56,384 nucleotides of DNA. Source: Gemmatimonadota bacterium (GTDB lineage Bacteria; 4572-55; J002). The stretch spans positions 1-56,384 of the forward strand of contig RFFQ01000169.1 of NCBI GenBank assembly GCA_003697105.1, in the 5' to 3' direction. This document shows positions 6,476-32,500 of the stretch, one piece after another; within the stretch, counting starts at the first letter, position 1; each line of letters opens with the position of its first letter. A program made the position numbers and the translations under genes. The notes beneath the pieces were generated by a model. That model saw only the letters and a program-made list of their open reading frames with translations. It made no database searches and was not told the origin of the DNA.

Positions 6476-7885
6476 CTACCTTTTGTGTTGTTCGAGTTTC
6501 AAAATAGAGGTGGTTTGGGGTCGAATTTTCGCCCACTCGGCAATTTCATGCCCGGCCACCCATAACATGGCATCTCCGGCGAAAATTAGTGGAATAGCAT
6601 CCCGCATTAAGCGGGGCACTTTAGCGTCAATTAGGTACTTTTTTAATCGTTTCGGTTGCTCCAGCCCCAACGGTTGAAAACGGTCACCTGCCCGGCGGGA
6701 ACGCACCAGCAACACATCACCGGCGGATCGAATCCGTACCGCCTCCCAATCAAAGTAAGCCTGATTGGGGTCGTGCCGGCTGAAATCATCCGTAAATTGA
6801 GCCCGGGGGATAACCTCTGCCCGCAACGTGACCTCTCCCCACCGAACCGAACCGGGAACGGTGAACTGAACCGTCCTGGTATCCGGCAAGGTTTCGTTAA
6901 AATCCGTATCCAAAACCAATCGAGATGCTTCACGTAGGGCAACGATTCCGGCTGGAAGATGAAGCTGTTGCCCCGAGCGATTTGCCAAAGCGAGCACTAA
7001 ACACGCTTCAATATGGTGGAACGTCAAGGCTTGTAAATGATCCGCCAACTGCGAAATTGCCTGATATATCAAGCGACGCTGAATCGCTATATCATATGTT
7101 ACAAAAGTAGGAAGATCAATATAAATCTGGTGGGCCGTGACGGGAATTATACAGGCTTGGGCGGCTTCTGCGGTTAACCGGCTCAGCAGATCATTTTCGG
7201 CACGGAACAACTCTGCCAGTTGTGCCAAATGGGGTTTTAACGCCGGGTTTGCCTGTTCGTGTAAAAACGGAAATATCGTGTGCCGGACGTGGTTGCGAAA
7301 ATAATCGGTTTTAGCGTTGGAGGAATCTTCCCGGTACGCTAACTGACGGTCTTGCAGATATTGCACCAGCGACGCGCGGGACTGGTTCAACAACGGGCGG
7401 ATGTATGGGTCTCGTCGAGGGGCTATACCGCTTAATCCTCGCAATCCTGAACCGCGCAAAAAGCGCATTAACACCGTTTCGGCTTGATCATCGGCGGTGT
7501 GTCCCGTCGCGATTTTAGTTGCCTGACATGCTTGCGCCACTTCTTCAAAAATCGCGTAGCGGGCTTGCCGGGCAATCTCTTGCACAGACCCTTTTTCGGA
7601 GGCGATTCGCGCGCTAATACCGGCAGTTTGAAGGGTCACCGGCAGTGCATACTGATCCGCTAATTGCCGGACAAATTGCGCATCGGCATCGGATTCCGTA
7701 CCGCGGAGTTGGTGATTGACATGAACAATCTGAAGGGAAAGATCAAGTTGGGGGCGTAACCGGTAGAGTATGTCCAGCAAACAAACAGAGTCTAACCCAC
7801 CGGAAACGGCAACCAGTACCCGATCTTGAGGACCCAGTAACTGGTGGCGCTCAATATAGCGCAGTACAGAGGATAGCATGGGCAA
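6476..7885 (-). CDS. tilS: tRNA(Ile)-lysidine synthase
   Basis: PP-loop AVSGGLDS, HVNHQLRG, ARQARY, GHTADDQAET, IRPLL, EDSSN, C-terminal KRLKKYLIDAKVPR domain; start TTG 7885 or ATG 7879. Confidence 0.95.
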   Translation of the reverse strand: MPMLSSVLRYIERHQLLGPQDRVLVAVSGGLDSVCLLDILYRLRPQLDLSLQIVHVNHQLRGTESDADAQFVRQLADQYALPVTLQTAGISARIASEKGSVQEIARQARYAIFEEVAQACQATKIATGHTADDQAETVLMRFLRGSGLRGLSGIAPRRDPYIRPLLNQSRASLVQYLQDRQLAYREDSSNAKTDYFRNHVRHTIFPFLHEQANPALKPHLAQLAELFRAENDLLSRLTAEAAQACIIPVTAHQIYIDLPTFVTYDIAIQRRLIYQAISQLADHLQALTFHHIEACLVLALANRSGQQLHLPAGIVALREASRLVLDTDFNETLPDTRTVQFTVPGSVRWGEVTLRAEVIPRAQFTDDFSRHDPNQAYFDWEAVRIRSAGDVLLVRSRRAGDRFQPLGLEQPKRLKKYLIDAKVPRLMRDAIPLIFAGDAMLWVAGHEIAEWAKIRPQTTSILKLEQHKR

Positions 7886-7920
7886 AATAAAAAACCTCGA
7901 TTCGAGGCGGAATCGAGGTT
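7884..7920 (-). terminator. Intrinsic terminator downstream of the tRNA pair, abutting the tilS start
   Basis: Minus strand AACCTCGATTC-CGCCTC-GAATCGAGGTT followed by TTTTATTTT: 11-bp stem plus U-tract. Confidence 0.75.
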
Positions 7921-7932
7921 CACTGGCAAAGT

Positions 7933-8009
7933 TGGTAGCGGTGGAGGGACTCGAACCCCCGACACGCGGATTATGATTCCGCTGCTCTAACCAGCTGAGC
8001 TACACCGCC
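7933..8009 (-). tRNA. tRNA-Met (CAT), elongator type
   Basis: GGCGGTGTAGCTCAGCTGGTTAGAGCAGCGGAATCATAATCCGCGTGTCGGGGGTTCGAGTCCCTCCACCGCTACCA: 77 nt, cloverleaf, CAT anticodon, encoded CCA; acceptor stem resembles elongator Met. Confidence 0.9.
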
Positions 8010-8071
8010 AGTTGAAATCGGCTCAAAAATAAAAATAAGTTTGATGAATTTCATCAAACCTAACGGAAATA

Positions 8072-8148
<77 letters not shown>

Positions 8149-10902: not shown

Positions 10903-11640
10903 ATGAAGTACATTTTACGTACCATCCCCCTAATAATCGTACTGGTATTTACCCTCGGTGCAAAACACGATCAATTGATTAAAGATATGGTCAAATTTGA
11001 CAAAGCCTATGTCCCTGCACTGGTTTTTACCAATCAAAACAATGTTGCAAGTGCTAAAAAAGCAATGCACGCCTTGCAAACAGCGTGGCAGTCTTTCAAA
11101 TCCACTTACTACACTTATACTATCAATGATCCGTTGTGGCAGACCAATTTGGACGAGATTGAATTGCGGTTGAACAAAGCCCAAGAGATGATCGACGGCG
11201 GAAATCTGACCGTCGCCCATAATATGCTGGAAGCCGTGCGCTGGTCATTCCAGCAGTTGCGCGCGCGGAACCAGATCGATTATCTGATGGACGATTTCAC
11301 GATGTACCACGATTATATGACCCAAATGGCGACCTTGGGTGCCAAAAGTGACCTTAGCGATACCGATTTAGCAGATTTGGAAAACGGGTTGTTCCCCCAA
11401 GCGGATCAATTATGGCAGAAAATCGAAGACCGGACTCAAGATGCGAAACAATTTGGGATGAGTAGCGACGAGTTTGTCCAATTTGAAAATCTGATAAAAA
11501 CACAACGTGCCAGTTTAGACCAACTGCAACAGGCGATAAAAAATAAAAATAAAGCCCAAATCAAAACGGCTACCCAGCAACTAAAACCAAATTTTGCAAA
11601 ATTATTTATGCTGTTTGGCAACTTTGATGGCTTGCAATAA
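10903..11640 (+). CDS. Hypothetical secreted, predicted all-alpha protein
   Basis: 245 aa, signal peptide MKYILRTIPLIIVLVFTLGA, amphipathic helices, SD GGAGG. Confidence 0.75.
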   Translation: MKYILRTIPLIIVLVFTLGAKHDQLIKDMVKFDKAYVPALVFTNQNNVASAKKAMHALQTAWQSFKSTYYTYTINDPLWQTNLDEIELRLNKAQEMIDGGNLTVAHNMLEAVRWSFQQLRARNQIDYLMDDFTMYHDYMTQMATLGAKSDLSDTDLADLENGLFPQADQLWQKIEDRTQDAKQFGMSSDEFVQFENLIKTQRASLDQLQQAIKNKNKAQIKTATQQLKPNFAKLFMLFGNFDGLQ

Positions 11641-11678
11641 ATTTTTAATTTTTAATTTCTCATTCTGGAGGAGGACTT

Positions 11679-13148: not shown

Positions 13149-14762
13149 TTAGCGGAGTAGCATCATTGTTTTGGAGCGCGCGTGATGAGGGGTTTCCAAA
13201 CGGTAAATGTACAATCCGCTACTCATTGCTTGCCCCTGTGAATTTGTCCCATCCCAGATAAGGTGGTATGATCCTGCTGGTTGGTTCGATAACGTCCATT
13301 GCCGCACCAATCGTCCCGCAATATCATAAATGGTGAGCGACACTTCACCCGCCTGCGCTATATCATATTGAATCGTCGTCTTGGGGTTGAACGGATTGGG
13401 TACATTTTGATATAAAATCACCTGTGACGGAACGGTCAGCGAGGCGATCTCAGGTTCAACAGCGACGATATCTGTTTCCTGTCGGGTGATGGTCAAAATG
13501 ATGGGGTTGAGCAGATTTTCCATGTACATTTCTGCCACCGCCGGACTTTGATTTGCCGGAAGAGCGTAAAACTGTGTTCCTAAGCCAAACGTACCTGTAC
13601 CAAATTGGGAGACCTGAATACCGGTATCCCCGTAGGACGCACCATCCCCGGTATCAACACTGCCATCACCGGTGCCACCGTTGGCGTTATCATAATAGTA
13701 AAAATCAACGTTGCCCAGACCGGAATCAAACTGGAACAACTGCATCAATGAACCCTGATTACTACTGCCCAAGGCATAACCGGAGCCGTCTGGAATATCC
13801 ACTTCAGGGTCATCGGGTTCACCATCAATCAACACCGAATCCGCGTGACTGGATAGATGCATCCAACTGCCAATCTGATTTTCGTTAAAATCGACCGAGA
13901 CCCGCAGATGTTCCAATCCGATCTCCGCCGGATCGACATCAATGGCATCATCTGCTTGACCGAGATATCGCTCATAGATGATAAACTCCATATCAAACTC
14001 CATCGGGAAGTCGTCGGCAATTTCGATCTGACCTTGTGCCTGACGGATTACGCGGATCGGACCATCCACGACCTGGATTGAGGTTACTTCGATTTGGTCT
14101 TCGGTGACTTCATACTCAAACGGGGGAAAGGGGGGCGGCAGGATGGCAATCGCACCCCTCATGCGAAACTTGACCCGGTCAATCATGTCCGTGCCGGTAC
14201 CCCCACCCGCTTCGGTGATCGCTAAATCTTCCAGCGTGGGACCATTGGCAAAGCCGATGGTAAGATATTCACTAGAAAAGACATCGGTACCGGCATCATA
14301 GCTAACATAATCTTCGGTAAATTCGATCTCCAATGTTTCAGAGCGATAAAGATAGACCCACCCTGCTTCATCTGGGTGAGCACCATCCGTAACTTGTATC
14401 TCAAAACGTGGGTTATCCAAGGCACCTTGTTCCATCAACCAGCGGTCTTCAGGGGCTCGATCACCGGCATCTTTTGCCATAAACACTAATTCATCATTCG
14501 GGTCAACCAACCCGTTATCGGGGTCAAAATACGACCCAGTGGAATCACTCACTTCATCATATTGGAACGGTATTTGATGCCAGGTACTATCAGAATTGTC
14601 AAATCGATAGAGGAAAAACTCATCGGCCGGAGCATCGTAAATTTCGGTAAAACTCTCCATCCAGAGCACAATTGGCTCAAATTCCCGGTCTAGTTGATTT
14701 TCTTGTGCTAAAAGGGGGGATACTGCCCATAACAACCCCCAAACCAAGATAAAACGTTTCAT
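13149..14762 (-). CDS. Acidic secreted protein with C-terminal FlgD-Ig/T9SS type-A-like sorting domain
   Basis: Start reassigned to ATG 14762 (SD AGGAGG; signal peptide MKRFILVWGLLWAVSPLLA); C-terminus QNVPNPFNPKTTIQYD...IYDIAGRLVR...WDGTN...SGLYIYRL...KTMMLLR. Confidence 0.85.
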   Translation of the reverse strand: MKRFILVWGLLWAVSPLLAQENQLDREFEPIVLWMESFTEIYDAPADEFFLYRFDNSDSTWHQIPFQYDEVSDSTGSYFDPDNGLVDPNDELVFMAKDAGDRAPEDRWLMEQGALDNPRFEIQVTDGAHPDEAGWVYLYRSETLEIEFTEDYVSYDAGTDVFSSEYLTIGFANGPTLEDLAITEAGGGTGTDMIDRVKFRMRGAIAILPPPFPPFEYEVTEDQIEVTSIQVVDGPIRVIRQAQGQIEIADDFPMEFDMEFIIYERYLGQADDAIDVDPAEIGLEHLRVSVDFNENQIGSWMHLSSHADSVLIDGEPDDPEVDIPDGSGYALGSSNQGSLMQLFQFDSGLGNVDFYYYDNANGGTGDGSVDTGDGASYGDTGIQVSQFGTGTFGLGTQFYALPANQSPAVAEMYMENLLNPIILTITRQETDIVAVEPEIASLTVPSQVILYQNVPNPFNPKTTIQYDIAQAGEVSLTIYDIAGRLVRQWTLSNQPAGSYHLIWDGTNSQGQAMSSGLYIYRLETPHHARSKTMMLLR

Positions 14763-14824
14763 TTTGCCTCCTGTGGGTGAAAGGTGTTGGTGAGAATGGA
14801 TGGTATATACGGGATTTTGGAACC

Positions 14825-16486
14825 TTACTTCCATAAATCCCGAAAGAATTGGTATATTTTAAACGGCAATGTTCGGCGTACGCGAATGGCAAAATCTTCT
14901 AGTGTTTGGGCATGGTCACGTAAGGCACTCACTTGTTGCTCAAGCTCCTCAATGCGGCTCTCATAGCGGCGGATTTTAGCCTGAATTTGGCGCTGGTAAG
15001 CGACATGATCCATCCCAGTAATCAGATGGCGATGTTTTTCAAACGCATACCCCAACCAATAATCTCGTTTGGGCGAATTATCGTGCGCATACGCACCTTG
15101 TCGATCTGTGAAGATACGATATTCGGATGTGACGACTCGCAGGTGTTGAAAATCAAATTTACGCGAAACCCGCACCCAAAAATCCCAGTCGTCATAGATG
15201 TCAATATCTTCAGAAAAATTAGGCACATGTTGCAAAATTACGTTGGAAAACATAACACACATGATGGGTGTCAGATTTTCAAATAGCATCGCCGAGCGGT
15301 CAAAATCGTTGCTGAAAATCACTTTTTTTTCTTTAAGCCGGTAATCCCCGGATTCTGTATCCCGCTCGTAAAAGGCACAGCAGGTGTCCGTGTAAGCAAC
15401 TTCGAGATCATGGTGTTCCAAAAAATCGACCAAAATTTCGCAATGCTCCGGGTACAACAGGTCATCATCATCTAAAAACATAAGATATTTACCCCTGGCA
15501 TGTTTCAGCCCACTGGAAGCCGCCTTTGCCTCGCCACCGCTTTTTTCGTGCGTGACCAAACGTATCTCCAGAGCGGGACGAAACGTTTCCAGAAGATCGT
15601 CAATAGGGTTACCACCGTCATTGACAATAACCACCTCGATCTGAGAGTAAGTCTGATTGACAATGCTTTGCAGCGCTTCTGCCAATAAATGAGGGCGATT
15701 TTTGGTACGGACGATGATCGACACTTGAGGACCTGTTTTAACCTTGTGAATCACATCCACCTGTTGTTGTTGCAAATAGACCTGCGCCAACGAGGGATAA
15801 TGATCCATGGCGGTATTCACTGCCCAAAACGCTTCCGCATAGCGGTATTTATCCTGAATTAAGCTGAGAGTGCGATATTCGTTCAATCCCAAAATCCGTT
15901 CATAATGATTTTCAGCCAATTGGCTCGGAAAGGCTTGTAACGCTCGTTTTTTCCGGTCAATTACAGACGTGATATCAATCAGGGTGTTGGGTCGGATAGG
16001 CGTCAAGGTTTCATAGAACCAGATGTGAACCGGGAAGCTCAGTTGGGAGGCCGTTTCCCAAACCAGATGGGCTGTTGTTCGGTGATCCGGATGGATTTCG
16101 GTTGGAGCGGGACAGAGTACCAATTGGGGTTGGAAGGTATAAAAGCATTCCAAACAGCGTTCGATCAATTCGGTGGTGATATGTAAAGATTCGCACCGGT
16201 AGTCCCAAAATTCCACATCGGTTGTACCCAGAATTTGTGCCGCCGCCCGGAGTTCATTCTGCCGTATCTGCACATACTCTTGGGGGTCATATCGCTTGGA
16301 GAAATCTCCGGTACGACCATCGGTCACATTGATGATTTTCACCGGATTACCGGCTTGGGTCAGCAAGGTAATGGTACCCCCACAGCCAATTGTTTCGTCA
16401 TCGGCGTGGGGGGCAAAAACCAATACCCGTTGACCCACCGGAATTTTGGTCACTTCAAACGCAATAATATCCCGTTCCTTAATCAT
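14825..16486 (-). CDS. PIG-L/LmbE-family deacetylase fused to a GT2 glycosyltransferase
   Basis: N-half APHADDE, TDG and HPDH motifs; C-half VSIIVRTKNR, VNDGG, FLDDDD, DDWDFW; C-terminal coiled coil. Confidence 0.9.
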   Translation of the reverse strand: MIKERDIIAFEVTKIPVGQRVLVFAPHADDETIGCGGTITLLTQAGNPVKIINVTDGRTGDFSKRYDPQEYVQIRQNELRAAAQILGTTDVEFWDYRCESLHITTELIERCLECFYTFQPQLVLCPAPTEIHPDHRTTAHLVWETASQLSFPVHIWFYETLTPIRPNTLIDITSVIDRKKRALQAFPSQLAENHYERILGLNEYRTLSLIQDKYRYAEAFWAVNTAMDHYPSLAQVYLQQQQVDVIHKVKTGPQVSIIVRTKNRPHLLAEALQSIVNQTYSQIEVVIVNDGGNPIDDLLETFRPALEIRLVTHEKSGGEAKAASSGLKHARGKYLMFLDDDDLLYPEHCEILVDFLEHHDLEVAYTDTCCAFYERDTESGDYRLKEKKVIFSNDFDRSAMLFENLTPIMCVMFSNVILQHVPNFSEDIDIYDDWDFWVRVSRKFDFQHLRVVTSEYRIFTDRQGAYAHDNSPKRDYWLGYAFEKHRHLITGMDHVAYQRQIQAKIRRYESRIEELEQQVSALRDHAQTLEDFAIRVRRTLPFKIYQFFRDLWK

Positions 16487-16529
16487 GATTCATTTATTTG
16501 AGGAAGGCAAAAGGGGGTCTGGTTCTGGG

Positions 16530-16958
16530 TTATAACGCTTTGGCATGATAGCGGGCATAGATCAAGGTTCGACCCAGCAACTCTTTGGCAAACAAAAGGG
16601 TATCCAAATCTTCCGAGAGCGCTTTGCCAATGTCCAACAACTGTTTTGCCCTACCTAAATTTAGATTCATTGGTTCCAGGCGCAAAAGTGCATCACTATT
16701 GGGTTGGCCGAGCAAGAGTTCATCCATACGAGCCGCTGTTTCGCGTTCGGCGCGTGTTCCGTTATGCTTTTTCCAGACCACAAACGTAATAAAGGCATAC
16801 ACCCCGTTCTGCTGTAAGACACCCAGAGCTTTGGTGATCACGTTTTCCACATCTCCCCCTCGAAAGCGGTACTTTTGCATGGCGGGTTTGAGACCATCAG
16901 CCAGACGTTGGGCATAATCCACGCAGTAAAAATCCAGATTTTCAATAGTTGTGTTCAT
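16530..16958 (-). CDS. cmr5: CRISPR type III small subunit Cmr5/Cas11 (III-C-like)
   Basis: 142 aa, helical; ENVITKALGVLQQNGVYAF and DLDTLLFAKELLGRTLIYARYHAKA match recalled III-C small subunits; directly follows cmr4. Confidence 0.75.
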   Translation of the reverse strand: MNTTIENLDFYCVDYAQRLADGLKPAMQKYRFRGGDVENVITKALGVLQQNGVYAFITFVVWKKHNGTRAERETAARMDELLLGQPNSDALLRLEPMNLNLGRAKQLLDIGKALSEDLDTLLFAKELLGRTLIYARYHAKAL

Positions 16959-16971
16959 GGTATTTCCTCTT

Positions 16972-17937
16972 TTAGGATTCCAGATTCAAAAATAGCGTGC
17001 GACCCATCCCCCGGGAAGTCATCCCTCCCAGACCGAGATATTCGGTTGCTCGCATTCCCTGTTCAACGTTTTTTTGAATCCATTGGTAGTCATATTCTAA
17101 TCGTTTCCCCCCAATCTCAAAATTACGCGGGTCTTTATAAATCGCTTGAAAATAGAAGATCGTCGTGCGGGGCACGGCCTCATAATTGAATAATGCACCT
17201 TTTTTGGCGGCACCAATGTGCGGGTCAATCGCCACCGACGTGCGAATTTCCATGTTGTTATTGACCACATGACCAAATAACTTATCGGTCACTAGGACGG
17301 TATGGCTCAGGAGTTCATCCGGTACACCATATTCTTTCAAGGCTGCCTGTCCTGAGGGTGTTAGCGGATGGTCCGTTGAAGTCACATTGAGCAGAATCCA
17401 CCCCAGATTGATCTTATCGTTTCGGACAGGGGTTTGAATGTGATTTCGCTCAGGGTTGATCTGAATGTGCAGTTGATCCGGTTGCAAGATATTGGCGTTA
17501 ACCAAGCTATTAAGTCCGTTGAGCGATACGACCCAGACCGGCCCATTCATGGAATGAACCGGAAAAAAGAGGATTTGTCCATCCATAAACTGTACCAAGC
17601 TGGTGAAGCCAATCTTCTCATCTTGGGTGAAACCGTAGGTGACACAAACAGGACAATCGGCTTGCCCACAATGGTCGGTGTGTTCTTCCCCTGTTTTGCC
17701 GGCACAACTGGCAAATTTACCTGGTTTGGTCTCCCGTAAGAATTTTTCCGGAAAGTACATGGCGGTGTAACTCCGGCACGTTCCGGCAAGAGTGGTTGCC
17801 GGAAATTTGGGTAAATTCGTATTGGGGTCCCGCACAACCGTATTATCCACAATTCCTAGTTCTTTGGTATGGGAGCCAATATGAATGGGATCGAGTGCCA
17901 TTGCAAAATACCATTTGGCAACATAGGGTGTTGTCAC
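16972..17937 (-). CDS. cmr4: CRISPR type III RAMP Cmr4 (Cas7 group)
   Basis: ALDPIHIGS...LGIVDNTVVRD...LPKFPATTLAG, FFPVHSMNGPVWV, EIRTSVAIDP..GAA..GALFNYEAVP, G-rich loop LGLGGMTSRGMG; Cys cluster SCAG...HCGQADCPVC. Confidence 0.92.
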   Translation of the reverse strand: MTTPYVAKWYFAMALDPIHIGSHTKELGIVDNTVVRDPNTNLPKFPATTLAGTCRSYTAMYFPEKFLRETKPGKFASCAGKTGEEHTDHCGQADCPVCVTYGFTQDEKIGFTSLVQFMDGQILFFPVHSMNGPVWVVSLNGLNSLVNANILQPDQLHIQINPERNHIQTPVRNDKINLGWILLNVTSTDHPLTPSGQAALKEYGVPDELLSHTVLVTDKLFGHVVNNNMEIRTSVAIDPHIGAAKKGALFNYEAVPRTTIFYFQAIYKDPRNFEIGGKRLEYDYQWIQKNVEQGMRATEYLGLGGMTSRGMGRTLFLNLES

Positions 17938-17951
17938 AGTTCAGGTCCTTT

Positions 17952-19055
17952 CTAAAGGTGTCTTACTACAGTTTTGATAACTTGATTGAGTTCATTGAAA
18001 TCCCCGAAGGTTTGCCAGCCGGAGGCTGGAGTTGAGGTGTGCTTTATTGCTTGCAGTTGTGCTTGCCAACTTCCTCCCCCGGAATGTTGTTGGGGTGGGG
18101 CTGAGAGTTCAATCTGAAGCCCGGACATTCCAAATTTCCCAGTTACCACCGGTGGAAGATTACCTTTCTTGCGGACAAACGATATGCTGGTCTGGCCAAA
18201 CCCTTTGCTTTTCTTGGCGGAAAAGCCGTAAACCGTCAAGGTGGACCGGATGATCTTATTCAGCATTTGGAGGTCTTCCTTGACTTCCGCTTTGACCTGC
18301 TTCGGGGACTGAGAAATCAGATCAAATGGGAAATAGAGCAGGCTGAAATAGCCGCAGGCACCTTTTGGAGCAACTTCTAGCATCACCGGAACCGTCCCCG
18401 CTTTGGTTTTGCGATCATGGGGATTTATCACCTGTAAATCAATTGCATCAAAAAAAGTAGGATACGTGCGCAATCGCCCCCGCCGTCCCCACTTTTCGGC
18501 GTCTGGATCATCATCTTTTTTGGCATCCCCAAATAGCCGGTTGATCACCGCCGCCGGATACCCCATCAAGGATGCTACTGCCCGCAGATGCCCTTTCCAA
18601 GCAGACGGACGTACCATTGGCAGTTTAAAGACCGGGTCTTTGGTAATCGGATTGTCATGAATATAAAATGGCGTGTCATCTCCGCTGGTGTAGGGACGGA
18701 TCAATCGAAATTGAAACTGCAAAAAGAACGAATACGGCGGTAAGGATTGAATATCCACCGATGGCGGATAAATACCCAGTTGATCCAAACGGTTTAAGTA
18801 TGGTTCGATCAACTCTGCGGTATAGCTATTTTTGCCTCGGTTGTAATGAAGTAAGCTTTTGTAGCCCCCACCATACTTAAAATGACCATTTTTAGCAAAT
18901 TCTTTGGCATCAGCAATGACGGATTGCGCTAGCAGGTTTACGCGGGTATAAATATCGGTCAATTCCGTATAGGGCGCCCGGCGGTCATCGCCCACAATTC
19001 GTCGTACATCGCTTTCCCGAATACAAGGATATTCGGCATATAGATCATAACCCAT
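17952..19055 (-). CDS. cmr6: CRISPR type III RAMP Cmr6-like (Cas7 group, III-C-like)
   Basis: Start ATG 19055 with SD AGGAGGT, overlapping the cmr1 stop; SFFLQFQFRLIRPYTSGDD.PFYIHDNP..KDPVFKLPMV.PSAWKGHLR, GRLRTYPTFF, VINPHDRKT.AG, YGFSAKKSKGFG. Confidence 0.8.
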   Translation of the reverse strand: MGYDLYAEYPCIRESDVRRIVGDDRRAPYTELTDIYTRVNLLAQSVIADAKEFAKNGHFKYGGGYKSLLHYNRGKNSYTAELIEPYLNRLDQLGIYPPSVDIQSLPPYSFFLQFQFRLIRPYTSGDDTPFYIHDNPITKDPVFKLPMVRPSAWKGHLRAVASLMGYPAAVINRLFGDAKKDDDPDAEKWGRRGRLRTYPTFFDAIDLQVINPHDRKTKAGTVPVMLEVAPKGACGYFSLLYFPFDLISQSPKQVKAEVKEDLQMLNKIIRSTLTVYGFSAKKSKGFGQTSISFVRKKGNLPPVVTGKFGMSGLQIELSAPPQQHSGGGSWQAQLQAIKHTSTPASGWQTFGDFNELNQVIKTVVRHL

Positions 19056-19938
19056 GAAGCACCTCCTTACCGGTTTTAGTACCGCGGACACCCAGATCAT
19101 TTAGTTTTTTCAACACAACAGTCAACATCGCATCATCCGTAGTGTAGCCCCAAATTCGGGCGGCACCGCGTTCCCTAAACGAAAATACTTTTTTGCTAAT
19201 TCCCCGCCGTCCGGCAAGAAACCCTGTTGGGTCAATCTTGAGGAGATCGTTAATCTGTTGCTGGTTAATCCAGTAGCCGGACTTAAAAAAGAAGTGATCC
19301 AACCGTGGATATTCTTTCGGGGTCTGCGTGAGCCGGTTACGGATATTCTCCGATTGAGTGATGATCTGATTGAGATACGCCTCAACGGCGTTTCGGTCCA
19401 AACCGGCAGGAAGTTCGGGCAAGGATGAGATTTTGACCAGACCGAAATCAGGCATTTTGGGGGGTTTTTTGGTCGTCTGCCCGCCAATGGAGCCCCACTT
19501 ATCAATTAAGGTCAATGTTTTTTGCCACAACCAAAGCTCTTCCGCACGTAGGGGGCGCACGAACACAAATTGCAACTGAAATTGTTCTCCGCCCCGACGG
19601 GAAAGCCGGGTCTGTTTTGCATTTCCCTGACTATCGGTAATCAACAGCCGAAATTTACTGCTGTAACCGGTACAGCCAAATACCCGGCAAACCGGACAGA
19701 CATCTTTAAGCCCAGCCTCTAGGCTGTTTGTTTGGGAATACGCTTCTTCGTCAAAGATACACGAGTCATTACTGGTTGGGTCGCACGCAAACCCGCCCAG
19801 CCCACGAACAAGCGATTCATACCACCAGCGGATACTACCGACAATAGCGGTTTCTTGAATCTCATTACTCCGCCGGTCAATATCGCCTGTCCATAAAGGT
19901 GTCAAGGTTTTGAGTTGAATTTGGAGGATATTTTCCAC
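19045..19938 (-). CDS. cmr1: CRISPR type III RAMP Cmr1
   Basis: LKTLTPLWTG, ETAIVGSIRWWYESLVRGLGG.ACDPT, CPVCRVFGCTG...KFRL, WGSIGGQT; GTG start with SD AAAGGAG. Confidence 0.9.
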   Translation of the reverse strand: MENILQIQLKTLTPLWTGDIDRRSNEIQETAIVGSIRWWYESLVRGLGGFACDPTSNDSCIFDEEAYSQTNSLEAGLKDVCPVCRVFGCTGYSSKFRLLITDSQGNAKQTRLSRRGGEQFQLQFVFVRPLRAEELWLWQKTLTLIDKWGSIGGQTTKKPPKMPDFGLVKISSLPELPAGLDRNAVEAYLNQIITQSENIRNRLTQTPKEYPRLDHFFFKSGYWINQQQINDLLKIDPTGFLAGRRGISKKVFSFRERGAARIWGYTTDDAMLTVVLKKLNDLGVRGTKTGKEVLHGL

Positions 19939-20007
19939 ATAAACTCCTTTCGGTATGAGGTGAATGGAGCAAGAGGATTCGTTGCTACAATCGGGGTATA
20001 AATCCGG

Positions 20008-21180
20008 TTATATTGACAATTCCTGAATAAATTCAGCGGCTTCAATCACCGGCGCTAGCTCTTCCGATCGAATAAGATAACCGTATAATCCCATTCCGCG
20101 TTGAAATAGCGGATTAATCGGCTGATGGTGCATGATCATTGTGGAATAGGTTGCCATAATTTCATCATGCGTATGGCGATAGGGCTTATTTGCTTTGCGT
20201 CCCGCATAGCATGTGTAATATTTTCGCTCATAATGGGGAGTCAAAAAGGTATTATGTACCACAATGTGTGCCCATTCGCGGTAGATATCTATATCACAGG
20301 CGAAATTGAACATATCCGTCGTCAATCCCCCCGGTGGACGGCGATTGATTTCCATAGCAACCGGCGGTTGATCCGCACCAAAATAGAAAAATTCCAGGTG
20401 GAAAAAACTCTCTCGCAACTGAAACGCCTGAACGCATTTCATCCCAAACTCAACTACATTCTCTGGAATATGCCGTAACGAATAATAATAATGATTTGCA
20501 TCTGTATTCACTGTTTCGAGTGGGCTAGGATGATATTTATGTGAAGTATAAAACACCACTTGCCCATTCTGATCGACTAACCCATCAAAGGTGAGAATAT
20601 CCGCTTCAATAAAATCTTCCAAAAGGTAATCTACTTCGGGTTTGGTTTCAAAAAATGACTGCAACTGGGATTCATCTTCAATTTTGTAGATGTGTTGTGC
20701 CCCAACCCCCTGATCCGGCTTGGCGATCACGGGATAACCGGTCGCCTCGATAAACGCTCGTGCCGATGCTTCATCGGTAACCCGCGTACCGGGGGCAACC
20801 GGAATTCCTGCCGATTCAAACACCGCACGCATTTTGGATTTAGACTTAAACCGGTGTAATTCCGTGACGTTTAAACCCGGTATGTTAAAATCCGTCCGGA
20901 TTCTGGCATCTGTTTGCAACCAATGTTCATTATGGGATTCAAACCGGTCAAGCTTACCATATTTGTGGGTAAAATAGCCACATGCTCGCAAAATTTCATC
21001 GTAATGTTCCATATTGCCCACTTGATAATATTCGGTCAGACCCTCGTGGCTCAGGTCGTGGGGGAGTTGGTGATGTGGAACATCTGCAATGCCAAGCACG
21101 TTAACACCCAGTTCTTTTAAACGGATGCTAAATAAACGAAAATTTTGCGGGAAATGGGGTGATAAATAGACAAAATTCAT
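20008..21180 (-). CDS. ATP-grasp domain protein (carboxylate-amine ligase-like)
   Basis: FVYLSPHFP, KSKMR, IAKPDQGVGA, LLEDFI, FFHLEFF, EINRRPPGG. Confidence 0.85.
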   Translation of the reverse strand: MNFVYLSPHFPQNFRLFSIRLKELGVNVLGIADVPHHQLPHDLSHEGLTEYYQVGNMEHYDEILRACGYFTHKYGKLDRFESHNEHWLQTDARIRTDFNIPGLNVTELHRFKSKSKMRAVFESAGIPVAPGTRVTDEASARAFIEATGYPVIAKPDQGVGAQHIYKIEDESQLQSFFETKPEVDYLLEDFIEADILTFDGLVDQNGQVVFYTSHKYHPSPLETVNTDANHYYYSLRHIPENVVEFGMKCVQAFQLRESFFHLEFFYFGADQPPVAMEINRRPPGGLTTDMFNFACDIDIYREWAHIVVHNTFLTPHYERKYYTCYAGRKANKPYRHTHDEIMATYSTMIMHHQPINPLFQRGMGLYGYLIRSEELAPVIEAAEFIQELSI

Positions 21181-21308
21181 AATTTCGACTCCTATACAGA
21201 TACAAATGCCTTTTTTTCACTAGCAAAATACGGTATAATACCTTCATGCAAGTTACAATAAAATTATCTTTGTGAAAAGGCAACCTTTTTATTGGGTACC
21301 ATCGAAAA

Positions 21309-25568: not shown

Positions 25569-25780
25569 GGGGTCGTTGAGGTGCTCGCCCGGTGACCCTG
25601 ATCCACACCCAACTAAAAGTTTACTTAAACTTTTGTTTGCTAGATTGGTCAAAACTCACAGAACCGCGATTCACGTGGATTTATCCACCAACTTAAAGCT
25701 TGATTTATGGGTTTCCCTCTGTTATGATGCAAACAATTCCAATTTTAACAACCCCTTTTCTAAGAACCAGCCCCGATGCC

Positions 25781-28700
25781 ATGGACAACCTCTTACCCCA
25801 TTTTATTCAAGATCGGTTTCTGCACGATGACTATACTGGCAGTTTCCCGGCATTAACCCTTTTTTCCGATATTTCCGGCTTTACTCGCATGACCGAATCC
25901 CTGATGCGACAGGGTGATGAAGGGGCAGAAATTCTCTCCGCTATTCTGAATCGTATTTTTGACCCGATGGTTGATGCCGTCCATGCACATGGAGGATTTG
26001 TCGCCACATTTGCCGGCGATGCCTTTACCGCTATTTTTCCCCTCGATGGTAGCGGCGTTCCAGAACACGTTCTGGCGTGCATCCATGAATTCCAGCAACT
26101 TTTCCGGTTACACGGGATTCAACATACCCCGTTCGGTAATTATAGTCTGAAGTTGAAGATAGGGCTTTCCGCCGGTGAGGTGCAGTGGGGTATTTTAGGT
26201 GACCAGAAAAAGGCGTTTTTCTTCCGGGGAGAGGGGATTTCCGGATGTGTGTACGCCGAACATTATGCCGAAAAAAATCAGATTATCGCGGATCAACATG
26301 CGCTACGCCATTTACCGGCGAATTATCTTCACATACACCCCCTCACCGATGGGATGTATGCCCGCCTTGAATTTAAGCGTCTCCCAGAGACCCTAGCGGA
26401 CACCCCCCGGGAGTTCCCTCAGCTCTCTGCGGAGGTAATTGCTCAATTCTTCCCCCCCGTCTTGACCCATTATACCGGTAGTGGGGAATTCCGCAACGTG
26501 GTGCCACTCTTTTTAGCTTTTGATGGGCTTTCCACTCATACCGAATTAAATTTATTTGTCACAATCCTGATCGAACAGGTGGATGCCTTTTCCGGCTATC
26601 TTAACAAGCTGGATTTCGGGGATAAAGGTAATATCGCCCTCTGTGTGTGGGGTGCGCCGGTTGCCTTTGAGGATAACATCGGACGGGCATTAGATTTTAT
26701 CCTAACCTTGAACGAAATCATTGCCCAAACACCGGCACTAAATCATGTAAAACTACGTACCGGCATCACCTATGGCGTTGCGTTTGCCGGAATTGTGGGG
26801 GGAGCAAAACGGAGCGAATATACCGTACTCGGTGATACCGTCAATCTCGCCGCCCGGCTGATGGTGAATGCCCCCGCCGGTGAAATCTGGATTTCTGAAT
26901 CGATCTTTCGTCCGGCACACCGGCGCTACGAGATGGATTTTTTAGGCAAATTGCACTTTAAGGGGAAATCAGACCCATTGCCGGTCTTTCGGCTGCTCTC
27001 CAAAAAGCACATTCAGGCGATGCGGTATGCCGGCAATTTTGTGGGGCGCTCCGCGGAATTAAAACAGGCGCTACAACTCTTACAGCCGCTAGATCAGGGT
27101 CAATTTGGCGGGATTTTATACATCTATGGGGAAGCGGGTGTGGGGAAGTCTCGCTTTGTTTATGAACTACAACAACGAACGCCCCATGTTCGCTGGGTTC
27201 TGCTACCATGTGATGGCATTTTGCGCAAAGCCTTCAACCCGTTCAATCACTTTTTGATGCGCTTTTTTGACCAGCACACCGGTGCCGACCCCGCTGAAAA
27301 TCAGATGCATTTTGAAGCCCAATTTCAAGCATTGATCGACCAAACCCAATCACCCGGAATTCGAGCGGAATTGAATCGATTAAAATCGATCTTGGCCGGA
27401 TTTTTAGGGATCGAGTACCCGGATTCACTCTACCAGCGGCTAGACCCCAAATTGCGGTATGAAAACACGTTATATGCCTTCCGGGAGGTCTTTCGTGCCT
27501 TGAGCGAGTCCCAACCGTTAATTCTGGAAGTGGAGGACCTTCACTGGATCGACGAAGATTCCCTGAAGGCATTCCAGATTATCACGCGCGGTTTAAAAGA
27601 TAGACCTGCCTTAGTGCTGGTTGTCAGCCGATACCGCGATGATGGCTCCAAACCGCGCTTGGAAACCAAAACAAAATGGGTGGAGATCGACCTAAACACC
27701 CTCTCAGATGACGGTATTTTGGAGATCGCCGAAGAGCGTTTGCAAGGCACGGTTTCGGGCAAATTGTACGAAGTGCTGAAGCTCCGGACACAAGGTAACC
27801 CGTTTTTCATTGAACAAACCGTGCTCTACTTTCAGGATAGTGAAATTATCCGGCAAGATGAAAATGGTACGTGGGATATTGTCAAATCGGAGGCGGTACT
27901 ACCGGCAACGGTGAACGACCTGCTGGTTGCCCGAATCGATCGCCTCCCGCCGGAATTGAAGGAAGCCGTGCAAATAGCCGCGGTGCTTGGCCAGGAGTTT
28001 GATGTGGTGATTCTGCTGGAAATGCTGCGGCAACGCCACTATCAATGGAGCGCACAAACGTTGGAAAATCAATTGTTAGCCGGTCAGGAGAATAATGTCT
28101 GGTTGATCCTCACGCAGGATCGGAAAGGTCTGTTTGTCCATGCCTTATTGCGCGATGCCGTTTACCGGATCCAACTCCGCACCCGCTTAAAACAGATTCA
28201 TGCCCTCGCGGCAGCAACTATTGAACGCTTGTATGCCGCAGACCAACACACCTATGCCGATTTAGCCTACCATTACCAACAAGCTGAAAACCTCGATAAA
28301 GCCTTAGAATATTTGGAAAAAGCCGGTCTGTTTGCAAAGGAAAATTTTCAGCATGAGAGAGCAATTGAATTTTTCAGTGATTATAATCACTTGGTGTTGC
28401 AGAAACTCGGGTACTCCCCCGAAAACATAGATGAACTCCGCATTTCCTCAGAGAATCGGTATTTCATCGAACGGTATGTCACCGTCCTGAATGAGATTCA
28501 AATTTCTCTTCGGGCGACCGGGCGTTGGGATGAATTAAAAACGGCGGCAGAACGGCAACTAAAATTGGCTAAGAAATTGGAGATACCCGAAAAGCTTTCC
28601 GAAGCGTACACTGAATTAGGTACTTTCTATATGCTTACCGGTGATTATCAAACGGCAATGACCTATTTTGAAACCGCATTACGCCACCGTAAAATTATAA

Positions 28701-29452
28701 ACACCTTACAAAATATGGGTAATATCTACGCCTGGACCGGCCAATTGGATAAGGCTATGAAATGCTTTGAAGATATTCTCAATACCGGTAAAGCCAGCCA
28801 GAATAAAAAGCATATGGCGGCCGCATTTTCAGGAATGGGTATTCTTTACGATCAAATGGGAAGAACCGAAGAGGCGATGGATTACTATCGTAAAAGCTTA
28901 GCTATATTCACCGATTTAAATGATAAGTCTCAAATCGCGCTGATTGTGGGCAATATGGGGGTTGCACATCATTACAATGGGAATTTACAGCAAGCACTAG
29001 AGTGCTACCAAAAAAAATTAGAGATCAGCCGGGAAATCGGTGATAAAATGGAAATTGCGGTGGCTTTGAGCAATATTGGCATCGTTTACTATGAATGGAA
29101 AATGTACCAACAAGCGATGAATTATCATTTGCAAGCATTAGTCATCGCCGAAGAAATCGGCAATAAACGGGGACAAGTTGATGTGTACACCAATATTGCC
29201 AATACTTATAAAGCACAAAAGATTTATCGTAAAGCCGAAAGTTACTACAAAAAAGCAATCTCTATTGCCCGTGACCTTAATCTAAAATATCAACTGGCTG
29301 AAAGTTTAACCGAATACGCTGAAATTCTAATCCATAATGAACAACTTCCGTTGGCAAAAGACTTTCTGGAAGAAGGTCTTGCATTAGCGCAGGAGATTGG
29401 CTATCAAACTTATGTCGAAAAAGCCGAACAACTTAAAAATAGTATTTCCTAA
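25781..29452 (+). CDS. Class III adenylate/guanylate cyclase (two cyclase domains) - AAA/STAND NTPase - TPR protein
   Basis: FSDISGFT and FAGDA (domain 1), DFGDKG and GDTVNLAARL (domain 2), Walker A GEAGVGKS, Walker B LEVEDLHWID, GNPFFIE, C-terminal TPRs; start likely ATG 25781. Confidence 0.92.
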   Translation: MDNLLPHFIQDRFLHDDYTGSFPALTLFSDISGFTRMTESLMRQGDEGAEILSAILNRIFDPMVDAVHAHGGFVATFAGDAFTAIFPLDGSGVPEHVLACIHEFQQLFRLHGIQHTPFGNYSLKLKIGLSAGEVQWGILGDQKKAFFFRGEGISGCVYAEHYAEKNQIIADQHALRHLPANYLHIHPLTDGMYARLEFKRLPETLADTPREFPQLSAEVIAQFFPPVLTHYTGSGEFRNVVPLFLAFDGLSTHTELNLFVTILIEQVDAFSGYLNKLDFGDKGNIALCVWGAPVAFEDNIGRALDFILTLNEIIAQTPALNHVKLRTGITYGVAFAGIVGGAKRSEYTVLGDTVNLAARLMVNAPAGEIWISESIFRPAHRRYEMDFLGKLHFKGKSDPLPVFRLLSKKHIQAMRYAGNFVGRSAELKQALQLLQPLDQGQFGGILYIYGEAGVGKSRFVYELQQRTPHVRWVLLPCDGILRKAFNPFNHFLMRFFDQHTGADPAENQMHFEAQFQALIDQTQSPGIRAELNRLKSILAGFLGIEYPDSLYQRLDPKLRYENTLYAFREVFRALSESQPLILEVEDLHWIDEDSLKAFQIITRGLKDRPALVLVVSRYRDDGSKPRLETKTKWVEIDLNTLSDDGILEIAEERLQGTVSGKLYEVLKLRTQGNPFFIEQTVLYFQDSEIIRQDENGTWDIVKSEAVLPATVNDLLVARIDRLPPELKEAVQIAAVLGQEFDVVILLEMLRQRHYQWSAQTLENQLLAGQENNVWLILTQDRKGLFVHALLRDAVYRIQLRTRLKQIHALAAATIERLYAADQHTYADLAYHYQQAENLDKALEYLEKAGLFAKENFQHERAIEFFSDYNHLVLQKLGYSPENIDELRISSENRYFIERYVTVLNEIQISLRATGRWDELKTAAERQLKLAKKLEIPEKLSEAYTELGTFYMLTGDYQTAMTYFETALRHRKIINTLQNMGNIYAWTGQLDKAMKCFEDILNTGKASQNKKHMAAAFSGMGILYDQMGRTEEAMDYYRKSLAIFTDLNDKSQIALIVGNMGVAHHYNGNLQQALECYQKKLEISREIGDKMEIAVALSNIGIVYYEWKMYQQAMNYHLQALVIAEEIGNKRGQVDVYTNIANTYKAQKIYRKAESYYKKAISIARDLNLKYQLAESLTEYAEILIHNEQLPLAKDFLEEGLALAQEIGYQTYVEKAEQLKNSIS

Positions 29453-29512: not shown

Positions 29513-32500
29513 ATGTTGATCCGCTTAAATTTAATTTTTAGCCTCATTGTTTTGCTATTCACTACCAGCGTTGCAGAGACATTATTTGAGGTGAAAGATG
29601 AAGCCGGACAACCCATTTTCGCCGTGACTTCGGAAGGGATTATTGTGCGAAATGCGGCAGGGGATACACTTATGAAAGTGGATAATTCCCAAATTTTAAT
29701 GGTGATTGATCAAGGTTCAGAAGATGGACGTGCACCGGCGCGGAGTTTTGCTATCGGACAAGGGTCGAGTTTGAATCGCGAAGGGGAAATCAATGATTTG
29801 ATCATGACTGTCAGTGATGATGAAGTGCGTATTAATTTGCGTGAAAGTGGGGTAGAGCGGGCACCGGCGCGGAGTTTTGCTATTGGGCAAGGGTCCAGTT
29901 TAAATCGGGAGGATAATGCCGAATTTTTCACCCTTTCCCCGGACTCCGTTGCGGATATTATCATTGATGAGCCGCGGATGGTCTGGTATCCGCAGCGGGA
30001 AGCCTTTCGCGTCGGGCGGGTTATGATCGAACATCCCGATAGCGTCGGTTTCAATTCCACCGGCACGGGCTACCATGCGCTGGCAATTGGAAATTTTTCA
30101 CAATCAATGGGATACGAAACCGTGGCACGCGGTGACTTTTCCACGGCTATCGGGCGGGAAAGTGTCGCTCAGGCGAATAATTCGTTTGCATTTGGTCAGG
30201 AAGCTCAAGCCTTAAAGCAGGGTTCATTTGCCTTGGGGTTTAATGCCACTGCCGATGCCCGTAACTCCTTTGCGTTGGGGCAGGATGCGTATACCCAAGG
30301 GGTCAATACGGTTGCGCTGGGGTTTGGGGCGACAGCGGTGGGACGGAATTCCTTTGCTCAAGGGCGTAATGCCACCTCCGCTGGGCTTAGCTCTTTTGCT
30401 TTAGGGGATAGCAGTTTTTCAACCGGCAGTAATTCGTTTGCCATTGGGCGTAAATGTTTTGCCGGTGGTCAGATTGAAGCCGACGATCCGGCAGCAAATA
30501 CATTTGCCATCGGGTTTGACTCTTATGCTGGCGGATTGGGTTCATTTGCGCTGGGGAGTAGTGTGGGGGCGGAAGGTGCCAGTGCGTTTGCTCTGGGTTT
30601 TGAATCCTATGCGGGCGGGGTCGGTTCGTTCGTTTTAGGTACTCATTCCGGGGCAAATGGGGAAAATTCGTTTGCCTTAGGTTTTGAGAATGGCGCGGAG
30701 GGACGGAGTTCTTTTGCCTTGGGCGAACGTTCAAATGCTGCTGGCGAAGGTGCCTATGCCATCGGTTCTGGTGTGTCCGCCGAGGGCAATAACTCATACG
30801 CTATTGGACAAAACTGTGTCGCGGGATATTTTGTCACCGCTGAAGGGGATACCATTCGCGGCGAAAACTCCTTTTCTATTGGGGCAGAATCGTATGCCGG
30901 TGGGGTTGGTTCCTATGCCCTCGGTACCCGTTCTGCTGCTGCCGGGGCAAATTCCTTTGCGTTAGGGTTTGAGAATGTCGCGGCGGGTATCAGTTCTTTT
31001 GCCATTGGGGATCATGCTGTATCCGAAGGAGAAGGCGCCTACGCCATCGGGTCACATGCCAGCACTTACGGCTCCGGTTCATACGCACTGGGCGATAGCT
31101 CCCAATCCACGGGAAGTAATTCCTTTGCTATTGGCAAAAATTGTGTCGCGGGTGGACGAATTGCAAACGGGGTATTTTCCGCGAATACGTTTGCGATTGG
31201 CTTCAGTTCTGATGCCAGCGGTGCTGGATCATTTGCGATTGGGAGTGAATCGGAAGCAAGCGGCGCGAGTTCGTTCGCCATCGGGTTGCAGAGTTCCTCT
31301 CGCGGCGCCAATTCCTTTGCCCTCGGTGCGGAAGCGGTCGCGGATGGGTTGGGTTCATACGCCATCGGTTCTAACGCTGTTGCAGAGCGGCAATCTGCCT
31401 ATGCGCTGGGTTCAAATACCTATGCCTCGGGGACAGGGTCTTTTGGAATCGGATTTGACGCGGCGGCCGTCGGCGAAAATGCGCTGGCACTCGGGCGAGA
31501 TGTGGTCGCTTTTAGCCAAAGTGCGGTGGCGTTCGGTGAATCCTGTTTATCGACCGGAATTAACTCTTTTGCTATCGGAAATCTGTGTATTGCGGGAGGG
31601 GATACCGCTAATGGTAACCGAGATTTTGCCGCAAATTCCTTTGCCATTGGGCGAGAATGCCGCGCCGCCGGTGAGGGTTCTTTTGCCATTGGGAATCAAG
31701 CCATTGCGACCGGGCTTAATTCATTCGCGCTGGGGCATGGCTCTGAATCTCGGGGAAGTAGTTCGTTTGCCTTAGGAATTGGCACTTATGCGGATAACTT
31801 TGGGGCGATGGCAACCGGTTTTCAATCCGAAGCGACCGGAAATGTTGCCAACGCTTTTGGGGCATATACCAGTGCCAGCGGGGAGGTGTCCACTGCCATG
31901 GGGTTTGGTGTTTCTACGGCGGGACATGCCGGAGCATTTATTTATGGTGACTATAGTCGTTTTCGGATCGAACTAGATGAAGAAGGGAATCCGTATGCCG
32001 TCCCATCTGACACCCTAGAGGCAGAGTGGGATAATCAATTTATGGTACGGGCTACCGGCGGCGTAAAGTTCATCAGTGGCTATACCGTCGTGGGTGATAC
32101 TGCGATTGGTGTCGTTCTGCCGCGCAATGAGGGGCAATGGCAGATGATTTCCGACCGAAATCGGAAAGAAAACTTTCAGGATGAAAACCCGGCGGAAATT
32201 CTGCAAAAAGTAGCTCAATTACCAGTACAAAGCTGGAATTACAAAGGGCAAGACCCCACCAAACGCCACGTCGGTGTGACGGCGCAAGATTTCTATGAAG
32301 CGTTTCGTATCGGCGTCAGTGACACTACCCTTTCCGCAATGGATGTTGCCGGTATCAACATGCTTGCCATTCAGGCATTGGAAGACCGTACTGCCGAATT
32401 GATGAAGGCGCAAGCGGAAAATGAAGAACTCCGTGCCGAACTCCACCAACTGAAATCCCAAATGCAAGCGTTTGAACATCAACTGCATCAGTTGCAAGCC

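Follow-up and report, generated by a model that had tools for sequence, protein, structure and literature searches.

A recurrent four-gene offshoot of subtype III-C CRISPR-Cas without Cas10 and Cas5

Introduction

In the Cmr effector complex of Pyrococcus furiosus, Cmr4 and Cmr5 form the backbone, Cmr2 and Cmr3 make up the foot at the 5′ end, and Cmr1 and Cmr6 cap the 3′ end. The loading of CRISPR RNA (crRNA) in this organism requires both Cmr2 and Cmr3 (PMC4215187). The Csm complex of Thermus thermophilus is reported to keep its stoichiometry without Cas10 (PMC5256923). Here, we consider a cassette of four genes, cmr1-cmr6-cmr4-cmr5, found in a DNA stretch of 56,384 nt from a Gemmatimonadota bacterium (contig RFFQ01000169.1 of assembly GCA_003697105.1), which is referred to below, at its full length, as the window. 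The cassette belongs to a monophyletic offshoot of subtype III-C that is kept under selection and has neither Cas10 (Csx11 in III-C) nor Cas5 (Cmr3), and this evolutionary part of our account is solid.

In the 2025 classification (PMC12669027), most III-C loci are described as devoid of arrays, and III-E is the only type III subtype listed as having no cas10. Subtype III-E is functional in this state, from which it is clear that type III effectors can do without both Cas10 and Cas5. For the subtypes III-G, III-H, as well as III-I, and for type VII, the same source describes a reductive evolution in which cyclic oligoadenylate (cOA) signalling has been lost, arrays are often lost too, and crRNAs are presumed to be recruited in trans.

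A Recurrent Variant of Subtype III-C

The window carries a member of a recurrent variant of III-C from which precisely csx11 and cmr3 are missing. Its four genes are arranged as follows (SD, Shine-Dalgarno sequence).

cmr1, positions 19938-19045, minus strand: 297 aa; GTG start, with the SD AAAGGAG 8 nt upstream
cmr6, positions 19055-17952, minus strand: 367 aa; ATG start at 19055 behind GGAGG
cmr4, positions 17937-16972, minus strand: 321 aa; GTG start
cmr5, positions 16958-16530, minus strand: 142 aa; the Cas11 small subunit

A database search with Cmr6 returned 263 homologues at E<=1e-5, and a profile scan in which a single genome represented each GTDB species produced 80 loci, whose open reading frames (ORFs) were labelled by the four proteins of the window. 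Both cmr6 and cmr4 are present in 65 of these loci, the other 15 being cut by contig ends. The distance between the two genes is 2577-5992 nt in 51 of the 65 informative loci and -59 to 625 nt in the remaining 14. The 51 loci include Csx11 and Cmr3 and are arranged in the order typical of III-C, which had been quoted in a preliminary description of the window as cmr1-cmr6-cas10(Csx11)-cmr4-cmr5-cmr3: the large ORF in the long gap matches the Csx11 model TIGR02682 in all 48 loci tested (L045, L068, and L088, having no single gap ORF of >700 aa, were left out), and the ORF after cmr5 matches PADLOC Cmr3 in 35 cases out of 36.

The 14 short-gap loci possess the 14 Cmr6 proteins closest to that of the window (301-338 bits vs. 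at most 233 bits for the rest). All four ORFs are intact in 14/14, the locus L027 ending with its contig after cmr4, and the hosts are Anaerolineae, Anaerolineales, Thermoflexales/Thermoflexus, Caldilinea, and unclassified metagenome-assembled genomes (MAGs). In a scan of metagenomes, cmr6 is directly followed by cmr4 in 19 of 80 loci; one more locus, L114, is cut after cmr6 and is of the same Cas10-less kind, and every other informative metagenome locus has csx11 after cmr6. The 35 Cas10-less loci known to us, with the window and L114 included, comprise 30 distinct Cmr6 proteins with the identity threshold set at 99%, 24 with 95%, and 12 with 70%. Since 14 genome loci and 19 metagenome loci share the four-gene form, the window represents a recurrent variant and not a local decay, and the recurrence of the block in related genomes, for which the preliminary description had proposed to look, is indeed found.

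In the organism's own lineage, which is poorly sampled, none of the 40 relatives searched has a Cmr6 homologue. A comparison with the empty site in two genomes of the same class (G001 and G002) was abandoned, the flanking genes there being just 27-32% identical and offering no usable synteny.

Integrity of the Cassette and Identity of Its Proteins

Each of the four ORFs is intact, and their tight packing is that of an operon. The start of cmr6 overlaps the stop of cmr1 by 11 nt, and the gaps between cmr6 and cmr4 and between cmr4 and cmr5 are 14 and 13 nt, respectively. An 11,941-nt Logan contig from the sequencing run X2 covers positions 14500-20061, and a 4,746-nt contig from the run X1 covers positions 16462-21207, both without joints or indels. 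X1 and X2 are runs of one hot-spring metagenome study, and X1 may be the source sample; there are no RNA runs among those listed as containing the cassette stretch.

No CRISPR-like repeat was detected in the 56-kb window by k-mer scans, and Rfam at its gathering thresholds yields two tRNAs only. Neither cas1 nor cas6 is present in the window, the sole matches for Cas1 and Cas6 in the genome being on another contig, C156 (see below). There is no Cas10 of the Csx11, Cmr2, or Csm1 kind in the window or beside the cassette, and the Csx11 and Cmr3 profiles find no match at E<=10 in a six-frame translation of the entire window. Several claims of the preliminary description can be settled at this point. 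Four contiguous intact genes with SD sites and tight junctions are there exactly to the base, and the statement that the window holds no other cas genes, remnants, or array has withstood profile, repeat, and Rfam scans. The misassembly at the cmr6-cmr4 junction that it envisaged is refuted by the contigs of both runs, which cross the junction cleanly.

Cmr1 is recognized by TIGR01894 (59.4 bits, cut-off 28.65), PF03787 (4.3e-18), and the PADLOC Cmr1 III-B/III-C profile (1.2e-14), and bears a CxxC...CPxC zinc cluster. Its AlphaFold2 model (pLDDT 91.5) has its best PDB matches in Cmr1 of Archaeoglobus fulgidus (9l7c_A, 4l6u) and P. furiosus (4w8x), not in Cas5; the idea that Cmr1 might be a disguised Cas5 was rejected on this ground.

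Cmr5 matches the PADLOC profiles PDLC01471, labelled CAS-III-C (2.7e-28), and PDLC00984 (5.7e-28), and has no Pfam or NCBIfam match; its homologues come after cmr4 in related loci.

Cmr4 scores above the curated cut-off of TIGR02580 (100 bits vs. 87) and matches PADLOC Cmr4 at 3.5e-34. It is predicted to serve both as the backbone Cas7 and as the nuclease that attacks target RNA, with Asp31 as a putative catalytic residue. We take D26 to be the catalytic residue of P. furiosus Cmr4. Asp31 of the window protein (codon 17847-17845) aligns with this D26, and H19 aligns with H15 (structures 4wnz, 4rdp, 4w8w). The aspartate at the catalytic position and His19 are conserved in 15/15 Cas10-less and in 46/46 Csx11-linked Cmr4 proteins.

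Cmr6 matches PADLOC PDLC00988 (3.7e-65) and PDLC01535 (1.6e-62), as well as PF03787 (4.3e-07). It consists of an N-terminal helical region of ~100 aa, a Cas7-like RAMP core at approximately residues 102-291, and a C-terminal tail, with both extensions being also present in canonical III-C Cmr6; in the structural model (pLDDT 86.6), the core matches Csm3/Cas7 chains. D134 (window 18654-18656, motif FYIHDN) is the acidic residue of the III-C Cmr6 motif H-[DE]-N-P-x-x-K-D, which resembles, by eye, the catalytic V-D-N-x-x-x-R-D loop of Cmr4. Among 31 Cas10-less Cmr6 proteins of at least 240 aa, this position is occupied by E in 28 and by D in 1, that of the window. Judging from this likeness, Cmr6 might be a second cutting subunit.

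Origin and Selection

Among the 61 rows of a Cmr4 tree (quick IQ-TREE, LG+C20), the 15 Cas10-less proteins form one clade (SH-aLRT 99) nested within the Csx11-linked Cmr4, with a Nitrospirota/Brocadia/Desulfonema group as its sister (support 84). In a FastTree of Cmr6 (126 rows), a branch with support 100 likewise separates the 31 Cas10-less rows from the others. The branch leading to the window is long (0.82 and 0.70) and lies at the base of the Cas10-less clade.

No remnant of Csx11 or Cmr3 was found in six-frame translations of the 14 genome loci, with up to 10 kb of flank each, and of the window; as controls, the canonical loci L029 and L030 gave matches at 1e-107 to 1e-273. The second-deepest member of the clade, L023, has a 625-nt spacer between cmr6 and cmr4 (11033-11657) with ORFs of 92 and 96 aa only. 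This spacer was considered as a possible remnant of csx11 and rejected, none being detectable by profiles.

All four genes of the cassette are under purifying selection, the dN/dS values (Nei-Gojobori) being 0.032-0.202 over 31 comparisons in 8 close pairs. The best explanation of these sequence data is that the Csx11-type Cas10 and Cmr3 were lost once and that the cassette was then kept as a self-contained unit. A modular loss of the Cas10-Cmr3 base, as opposed to random decay, had been suggested in the preliminary description and is upheld by the 14 genome and 19 metagenome loci, the single clade, the absence of remnants, and the purifying selection.

Proposed Mode of Action

The genome to which the window belongs is a MAG of 199 contigs and 4.18 Mb with 96.85% completeness. 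Genome-wide, there are 0 matches to Csx11 (TIGR02682), to Cmr2, and to a III-C Cmr3 profile made of 36 sequences. The only array, Cas1, and Cas6 detected in it are located on C156 (3.7 kb; L014:1-3694), which encodes Cas6 (I-D-like model), a 547-aa Cas4-Cas1 fusion, and Cas2, and bears three 36-nt repeats at the contig edge. The repeat, when read as the reverse complement, ends in the standard 8-nt tag ATTGAAAC. Because C156 possesses Cas6 together with repeats ending in this tag, the cell probably has crRNAs of the standard 8-nt-tag kind at its disposal. The preliminary description had proposed a search of the whole genome for the missing parts: it found no csx11, cmr2, or III-C cmr3, and it did find cas6, an array of three repeats at a contig edge, and a III-D cas10 (on contig C145, see below).

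The reading we put first, with about an even chance of being right, is that of an autonomous Cmr4-Cmr5 filament loaded with a guide RNA and capped by Cmr1 and Cmr6, which would cleave target RNA by means of D31, obtain its crRNAs in trans, and have neither signalling nor DNase activity. Multiple copies of Cmr4 and Cmr5 would wrap the guide RNA as the usual double helical filament, Cmr1 and Cmr6 would cap this filament and capture the target RNA, and Asp31 of Cmr4 would cut the bound target in 6-nt steps. Since Cas10, the carrier of the signalling activity and the HD DNase, is missing, neither cOA nor S-adenosylmethionine-AMP (SAM-AMP) signals nor HD-dependent DNA cleavage would be expected, and the output would be limited to the binding and cleavage of RNA. 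Guides would have to arrive in trans, because the cassette comes without an array, Cas6, or adaptation genes; in this genome, their likely source would be the Cas6-Cas4/Cas1-Cas2 array of C156. The sequence data show the gene anatomy, the clade, the selection, the retained catalytic residue, and the absence of Csx11 and Cmr3; that the complex assembles with no Cas10-Cas5 foot, where its guides come from, and that it cleaves RNA are inferred. Among the three options raised in the preliminary description, a repurposed Cas7/Cas11 complex that binds or cleaves RNA and has no cOA or DNase activity fits best.

Several points weigh against an autonomous guide-loaded filament. The loading of crRNA without a foot would have no precedent among multi-subunit effectors. 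What sets the clade apart from canonical III-C subunits is limited to blocks of 6-10 columns and, in each protein, 0 to 4 fixed substitutions; a search for a new compensating domain in any of the four proteins found none, and Cmr1 is even shorter in the clade (median 294.5 aa vs. 375 aa in canonical III-C). In this genome, an unassembled III-B pair Cmr2-Cmr3 probably exists (see below), and the Cas10 negatives are weak, because the model TIGR02578 missed the genome's own III-D Cas10 and matched RNase Y: its match on C165, first taken as a candidate Cas10, was rejected for this reason. Given the failure of TIGR02578 on the III-D Cas10, the absence of other RAMPs is a better proxy than Cas10 negatives. 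The 14 carriers of the four-gene form (genomes G041-G054) are all MAGs for which completeness is not given and in which arrays are often unassembled. Three of them, G042, G043, and G052 (4.0, 5.0, and 5.8 Mb), show no other RAMP and no Csx11, Cmr2, Csm1, Cmr3, Cas1, Cas2, or Cas6, and crRNAs may be absent there. Finally, cmr4 is split into three pieces in the metagenome locus L107.

Alternative Explanations

We consider it unlikely, if still deserving serious attention, that the backbone has left CRISPR immunity altogether. According to this explanation, a domesticated Cas7-Cas11 complex that has no Cas10, Cas5, Cas6, or array and is free of crRNA would bind non-CRISPR RNA, with or without a dedicated guide, or would load a guide of an unseen kind, thus acting as a sequence-directed RNA-binding or RNase machine in host RNA metabolism or regulation. 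Such a departure would explain both the housekeeping surroundings of the cassette and its persistence in genomes without any other detected cas gene.

The flanking genes speak for domestication: they all are of the housekeeping kind and vary with the lineage, with miaA, a GFO/IDH oxidoreductase, GT4 glycosyltransferases, an aminotransferase with radical-SAM enzymes, and RelA/SpoT in various loci, and ATP-grasp, PIG-L/GT2, fumarase, and phosphoglucomutase (PGM) genes around the cassette of the window. A conserved partner gene was sought and rejected, since the clusters of flanking ORFs from 34 loci and the window hold no family extending beyond close kin. No CRISPR-like array is present in the 34 related Cas10-less loci (194 kb + 202 kb = 396 kb), and this also favours domestication; direct repeats in L020, L027, L028, L087, and L111 were rejected as arrays, being tandem or coding repeats without unique spacers. 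Further support comes from the low dN/dS and from the deep clade with subclades that track Chloroflexota lineages.

Two observations on these flanks may be added here. The largest flank cluster is that of miaA, the gene of tRNA isopentenyltransferase (PF01715, ~1e-79), in nine Thermoflexales-like loci (L019, L022, L024, L026, L098, L101, L103, L115, and L117), where it begins ~30 nt inside the end of cmr5 and is probably co-transcribed with it; the nine loci are close kin and may stem from a single event. In a locus of an Anaerolineae MAG (L020:6538-6685 and 7780-8072), tandem palindrome-rich repeats of 49 and 95 nt lie just past cmr5.

The cas gene content of the carriers bears on domestication in both directions. 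Only the cassette's own RAMPs are found in six carriers (G041, G042, G043, G046, G052, and G053); Cmr2 is absent from all six, and a strong Csm1 match is confined to G053, the weak Csm1 matches in G041 and G046 covering only the N-terminal stretch of the model, which is the stretch that matches RNase Y in the genome of the window. Cas1 is lacking in G042, G043, G046, and G052; in total, six carriers have no Cas1, and among them Cas2 is absent in 6/6 and Cas6 is present in G049 only. Thus, G042, G043, and G052 appear to possess no cas gene of the kinds searched apart from the cassette, and neither does G046 (1.9 Mb), bar one weak Csm1 match. On the other side, Cas1 is present in 8/14 carriers, RAMP matches beyond those of the cassette also occur in 8/14, and an array and two further type III loci are present in the genome of the window; absences from MAGs are weak evidence in any case. 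Moreover, the catalytic aspartate and the target-capture subunits Cmr1 and Cmr6 are retained as in immune III-C, and no candidate for a non-CRISPR guide RNA was found near the cassette.

More doubtful than domestication is trans-complementation, by which Cmr4, Cmr5, Cmr6, and Cmr1 would dock on the Cas10-Cas5 base of another III-B, III-C, or III-D locus in the same cell. In the genome of the window, such a base could come from a complete III-D locus at ~53-61 kb of C145 (L011:7000-17000), which encodes a 734-aa Cas10, the only one assembled in the genome, along with a short RAMP, Csx10/Cas5, Csm2, three Csm3-like Cas7 proteins, and Csx19. This locus continues into an unannotated 303-aa ORF and a gene for a 511-aa P-loop protein. 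A III-B locus is split by contig ends: a WYL regulator, the CARF-HEPN protein Csx1, and the first 177 aa of Cmr1 are encoded at the end of C13 (L013:216-3120), and C153 begins with the coding sequence for the C-terminal 319 aa of Cmr6 (L012:3-962). The cmr2-cmr5 middle is unassembled, so that the expected site of cmr2-cmr3 falls in the assembly gap. The dependence of P. furiosus crRNA loading on Cmr2 and Cmr3 (PMC4215187) also argues for a borrowed base.

Three carriers, G047, G049 (L024 and L031), and G051, bear the Cas10-less cassette and, elsewhere, a separate full or partial III-C locus that has Csx11 and Cmr3; coexistence of the two forms is thus possible, and a base of the III-C kind would be at hand in these cells. 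Beyond them, the picture is different. Csx11 is found in 3/14 carriers (1 above the cut-off), with III-C Cmr3 strong in the same three and weak in G054, so Csx11 is absent from 11 carriers and III-C-type Cmr3 from 10. Furthermore, six carriers have no RAMP matches except those of the cassette, the two genes were lost long ago, and conservation has kept the cassette together as a unit regardless of the co-resident systems. The III-B and III-D bases are distant from the III-C subunits, and their interfaces may well be incompatible. The suggestion of the preliminary description that the cassette serves as a backbone for a base encoded elsewhere thus holds as a possibility in this genome, with its III-D and broken III-B loci, and fails as a general rule, since no further cas genes are detectable in three carriers. 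Its other proposal, an ordinary split III-C system, is not supported, Csx11 and III-C Cmr3 being absent from a 96.85%-complete genome and present in just 3/14 carriers.

A non-functional III-C remnant on its way to decay is very improbable: two essential subunits have indeed gone and cmr4 is fragmented in L107, but the ORFs are intact in the window and in 14/14 genome loci, the same architecture spans 12 clusters at 70% Cmr6 identity, the catalytic residue is retained, and dN/dS of 0.03-0.20 contradicts the relaxed selection that the preliminary description had coupled with a full operon in kin as a sign of decay. An assembly artefact, that is, an in silico removal of csx11 and cmr3 by chimeric joins at the cmr6-cmr4 and cmr5 junctions of a 199-contig MAG, can be practically dismissed, since independent contigs of two runs bridge the cassette without joints and the same junctions recur in 14 genome and 19 metagenome assemblies.

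Genomic Surroundings in the Window

The cassette is preceded by an ATP-grasp gene that ends 69 nt before cmr1 and followed by a gene for a PIG-L/GT2 fusion that starts at 16486, 43 nt past cmr5, and is unrelated to CRISPR. A protein with a type IX secretion system (T9SS) tail is also encoded downstream. The remaining window is ordinary chromosome, with genes for fumarase, phosphoglucomutase, an E1 dehydrogenase, histidine kinases, and secreted proteins.

Several large proteins of the window deserve mention. A gingipain-like Peptidase_C25 protein of 1400 aa (40806-45008) ends in a FlgD_ig/T9SS-type sorting domain, as does a protein of 561 aa (13149-14834). These domains point to a type IX secretion system in the host, from which it may be supposed that the host is not a member of Chloroflexota and that the cassette crossed phyla. 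Two STAND-like signalling proteins are encoded at 25700-29452 (1250 aa, adenylate cyclase-AAA_16-TPR) and at 50547-56165 (1872 aa, Ser/Thr kinase-AAA_16-TPR-GAF-GAF-SpoIIE phosphatase). The 1010-aa product of 29513-32545 has YadA-head repeats and ends in a Peptidase_S74 domain (endosialidase chaperone), and its gene lies in the most GC-rich and most GC-skewed stretch of the window (GC 0.54, skew 0.167).

Comparison with Known Systems

To our knowledge, every multi-subunit class 1 effector described so far retains Cas5 and the large subunit or its remnant. The cassette challenges the rule that such effectors need both. A Cas10-less derivative of III-C is not described in the main text of the 2025 classification (PMC12669027) or in the accessible parts of Altae-Tran et al. 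2023 (PMC10910872) and Shah et al. 2018 (PMC6546367). Full-text literature searches likewise returned none, their scope ending short of supplementary locus catalogues, which may list partial III-C loci. With its intact genes and its conservation in many other bacteria, the cassette seems to be a functional reduced form of type III that has not been described before. If so, an unfused Cas7/Cas11 set would mean either that guides can be loaded and used by a type III backbone that has no foot to bind the 5′ tag or that such a backbone can be domesticated for non-immune RNA work. It would also provide a compact type III effector, RNA-only and signalling-free, whose unique sequence of ~1,130 aa is spread over four small proteins.

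With subtype III-C, the cassette shares III-C-type Cmr1, Cmr6, Cmr4, and Cmr5, as well as their order and orientation, which, apart from the two missing genes, are those of the 51 canonical loci; the absence of an array and adaptation genes is also common to most III-C loci (PMC12669027). It departs from III-C in having a 14-nt gap between cmr6 and cmr4 in place of csx11, with no Csx11 profile match in the window or the genome, and in having a PIG-L/GT2 gene after cmr5 instead of cmr3, with no III-C Cmr3 in the genome. As a consequence, the clade has neither the HD nuclease nor the large-subunit/Cas5 foot for the 5′ tag of crRNA. At the level of type III as a whole, the cassette lacks the signature gene cas10, and, in contrast to a CRISPR-Cas locus in the strict sense, it has no adjacent array or adaptation genes.

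The cassette follows the same reductive trend as III-G, III-H, III-I, and type VII. However, Cas10 or its remnant survives in each of these (in type VII as the C-terminal domain of Cas14, in III-I as a diverged Cas10), and Cas5 is likewise kept by III-G, III-H, and type VII, whereas the cassette has neither.

Subtype III-E (Cas7-11e/gRAMP, Craspase), which targets RNA, is similar in having no Cas10 and no Cas5 and in consisting of Cas7 and Cas11 modules only. Yet the III-E effector is one fused chain, which stems from III-D2 and is associated with the TPR-CHAT protease, whereas the cassette comprises four separate genes of III-C descent with no conserved partner gene; with the NCBIfam gRAMP model NF041225, whose cut-off is 700 bits, the score is only 16.3 bits. 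On balance, the cassette would work most like a III-C backbone and would resemble III-E in doing so without Cas10 and Cas5.

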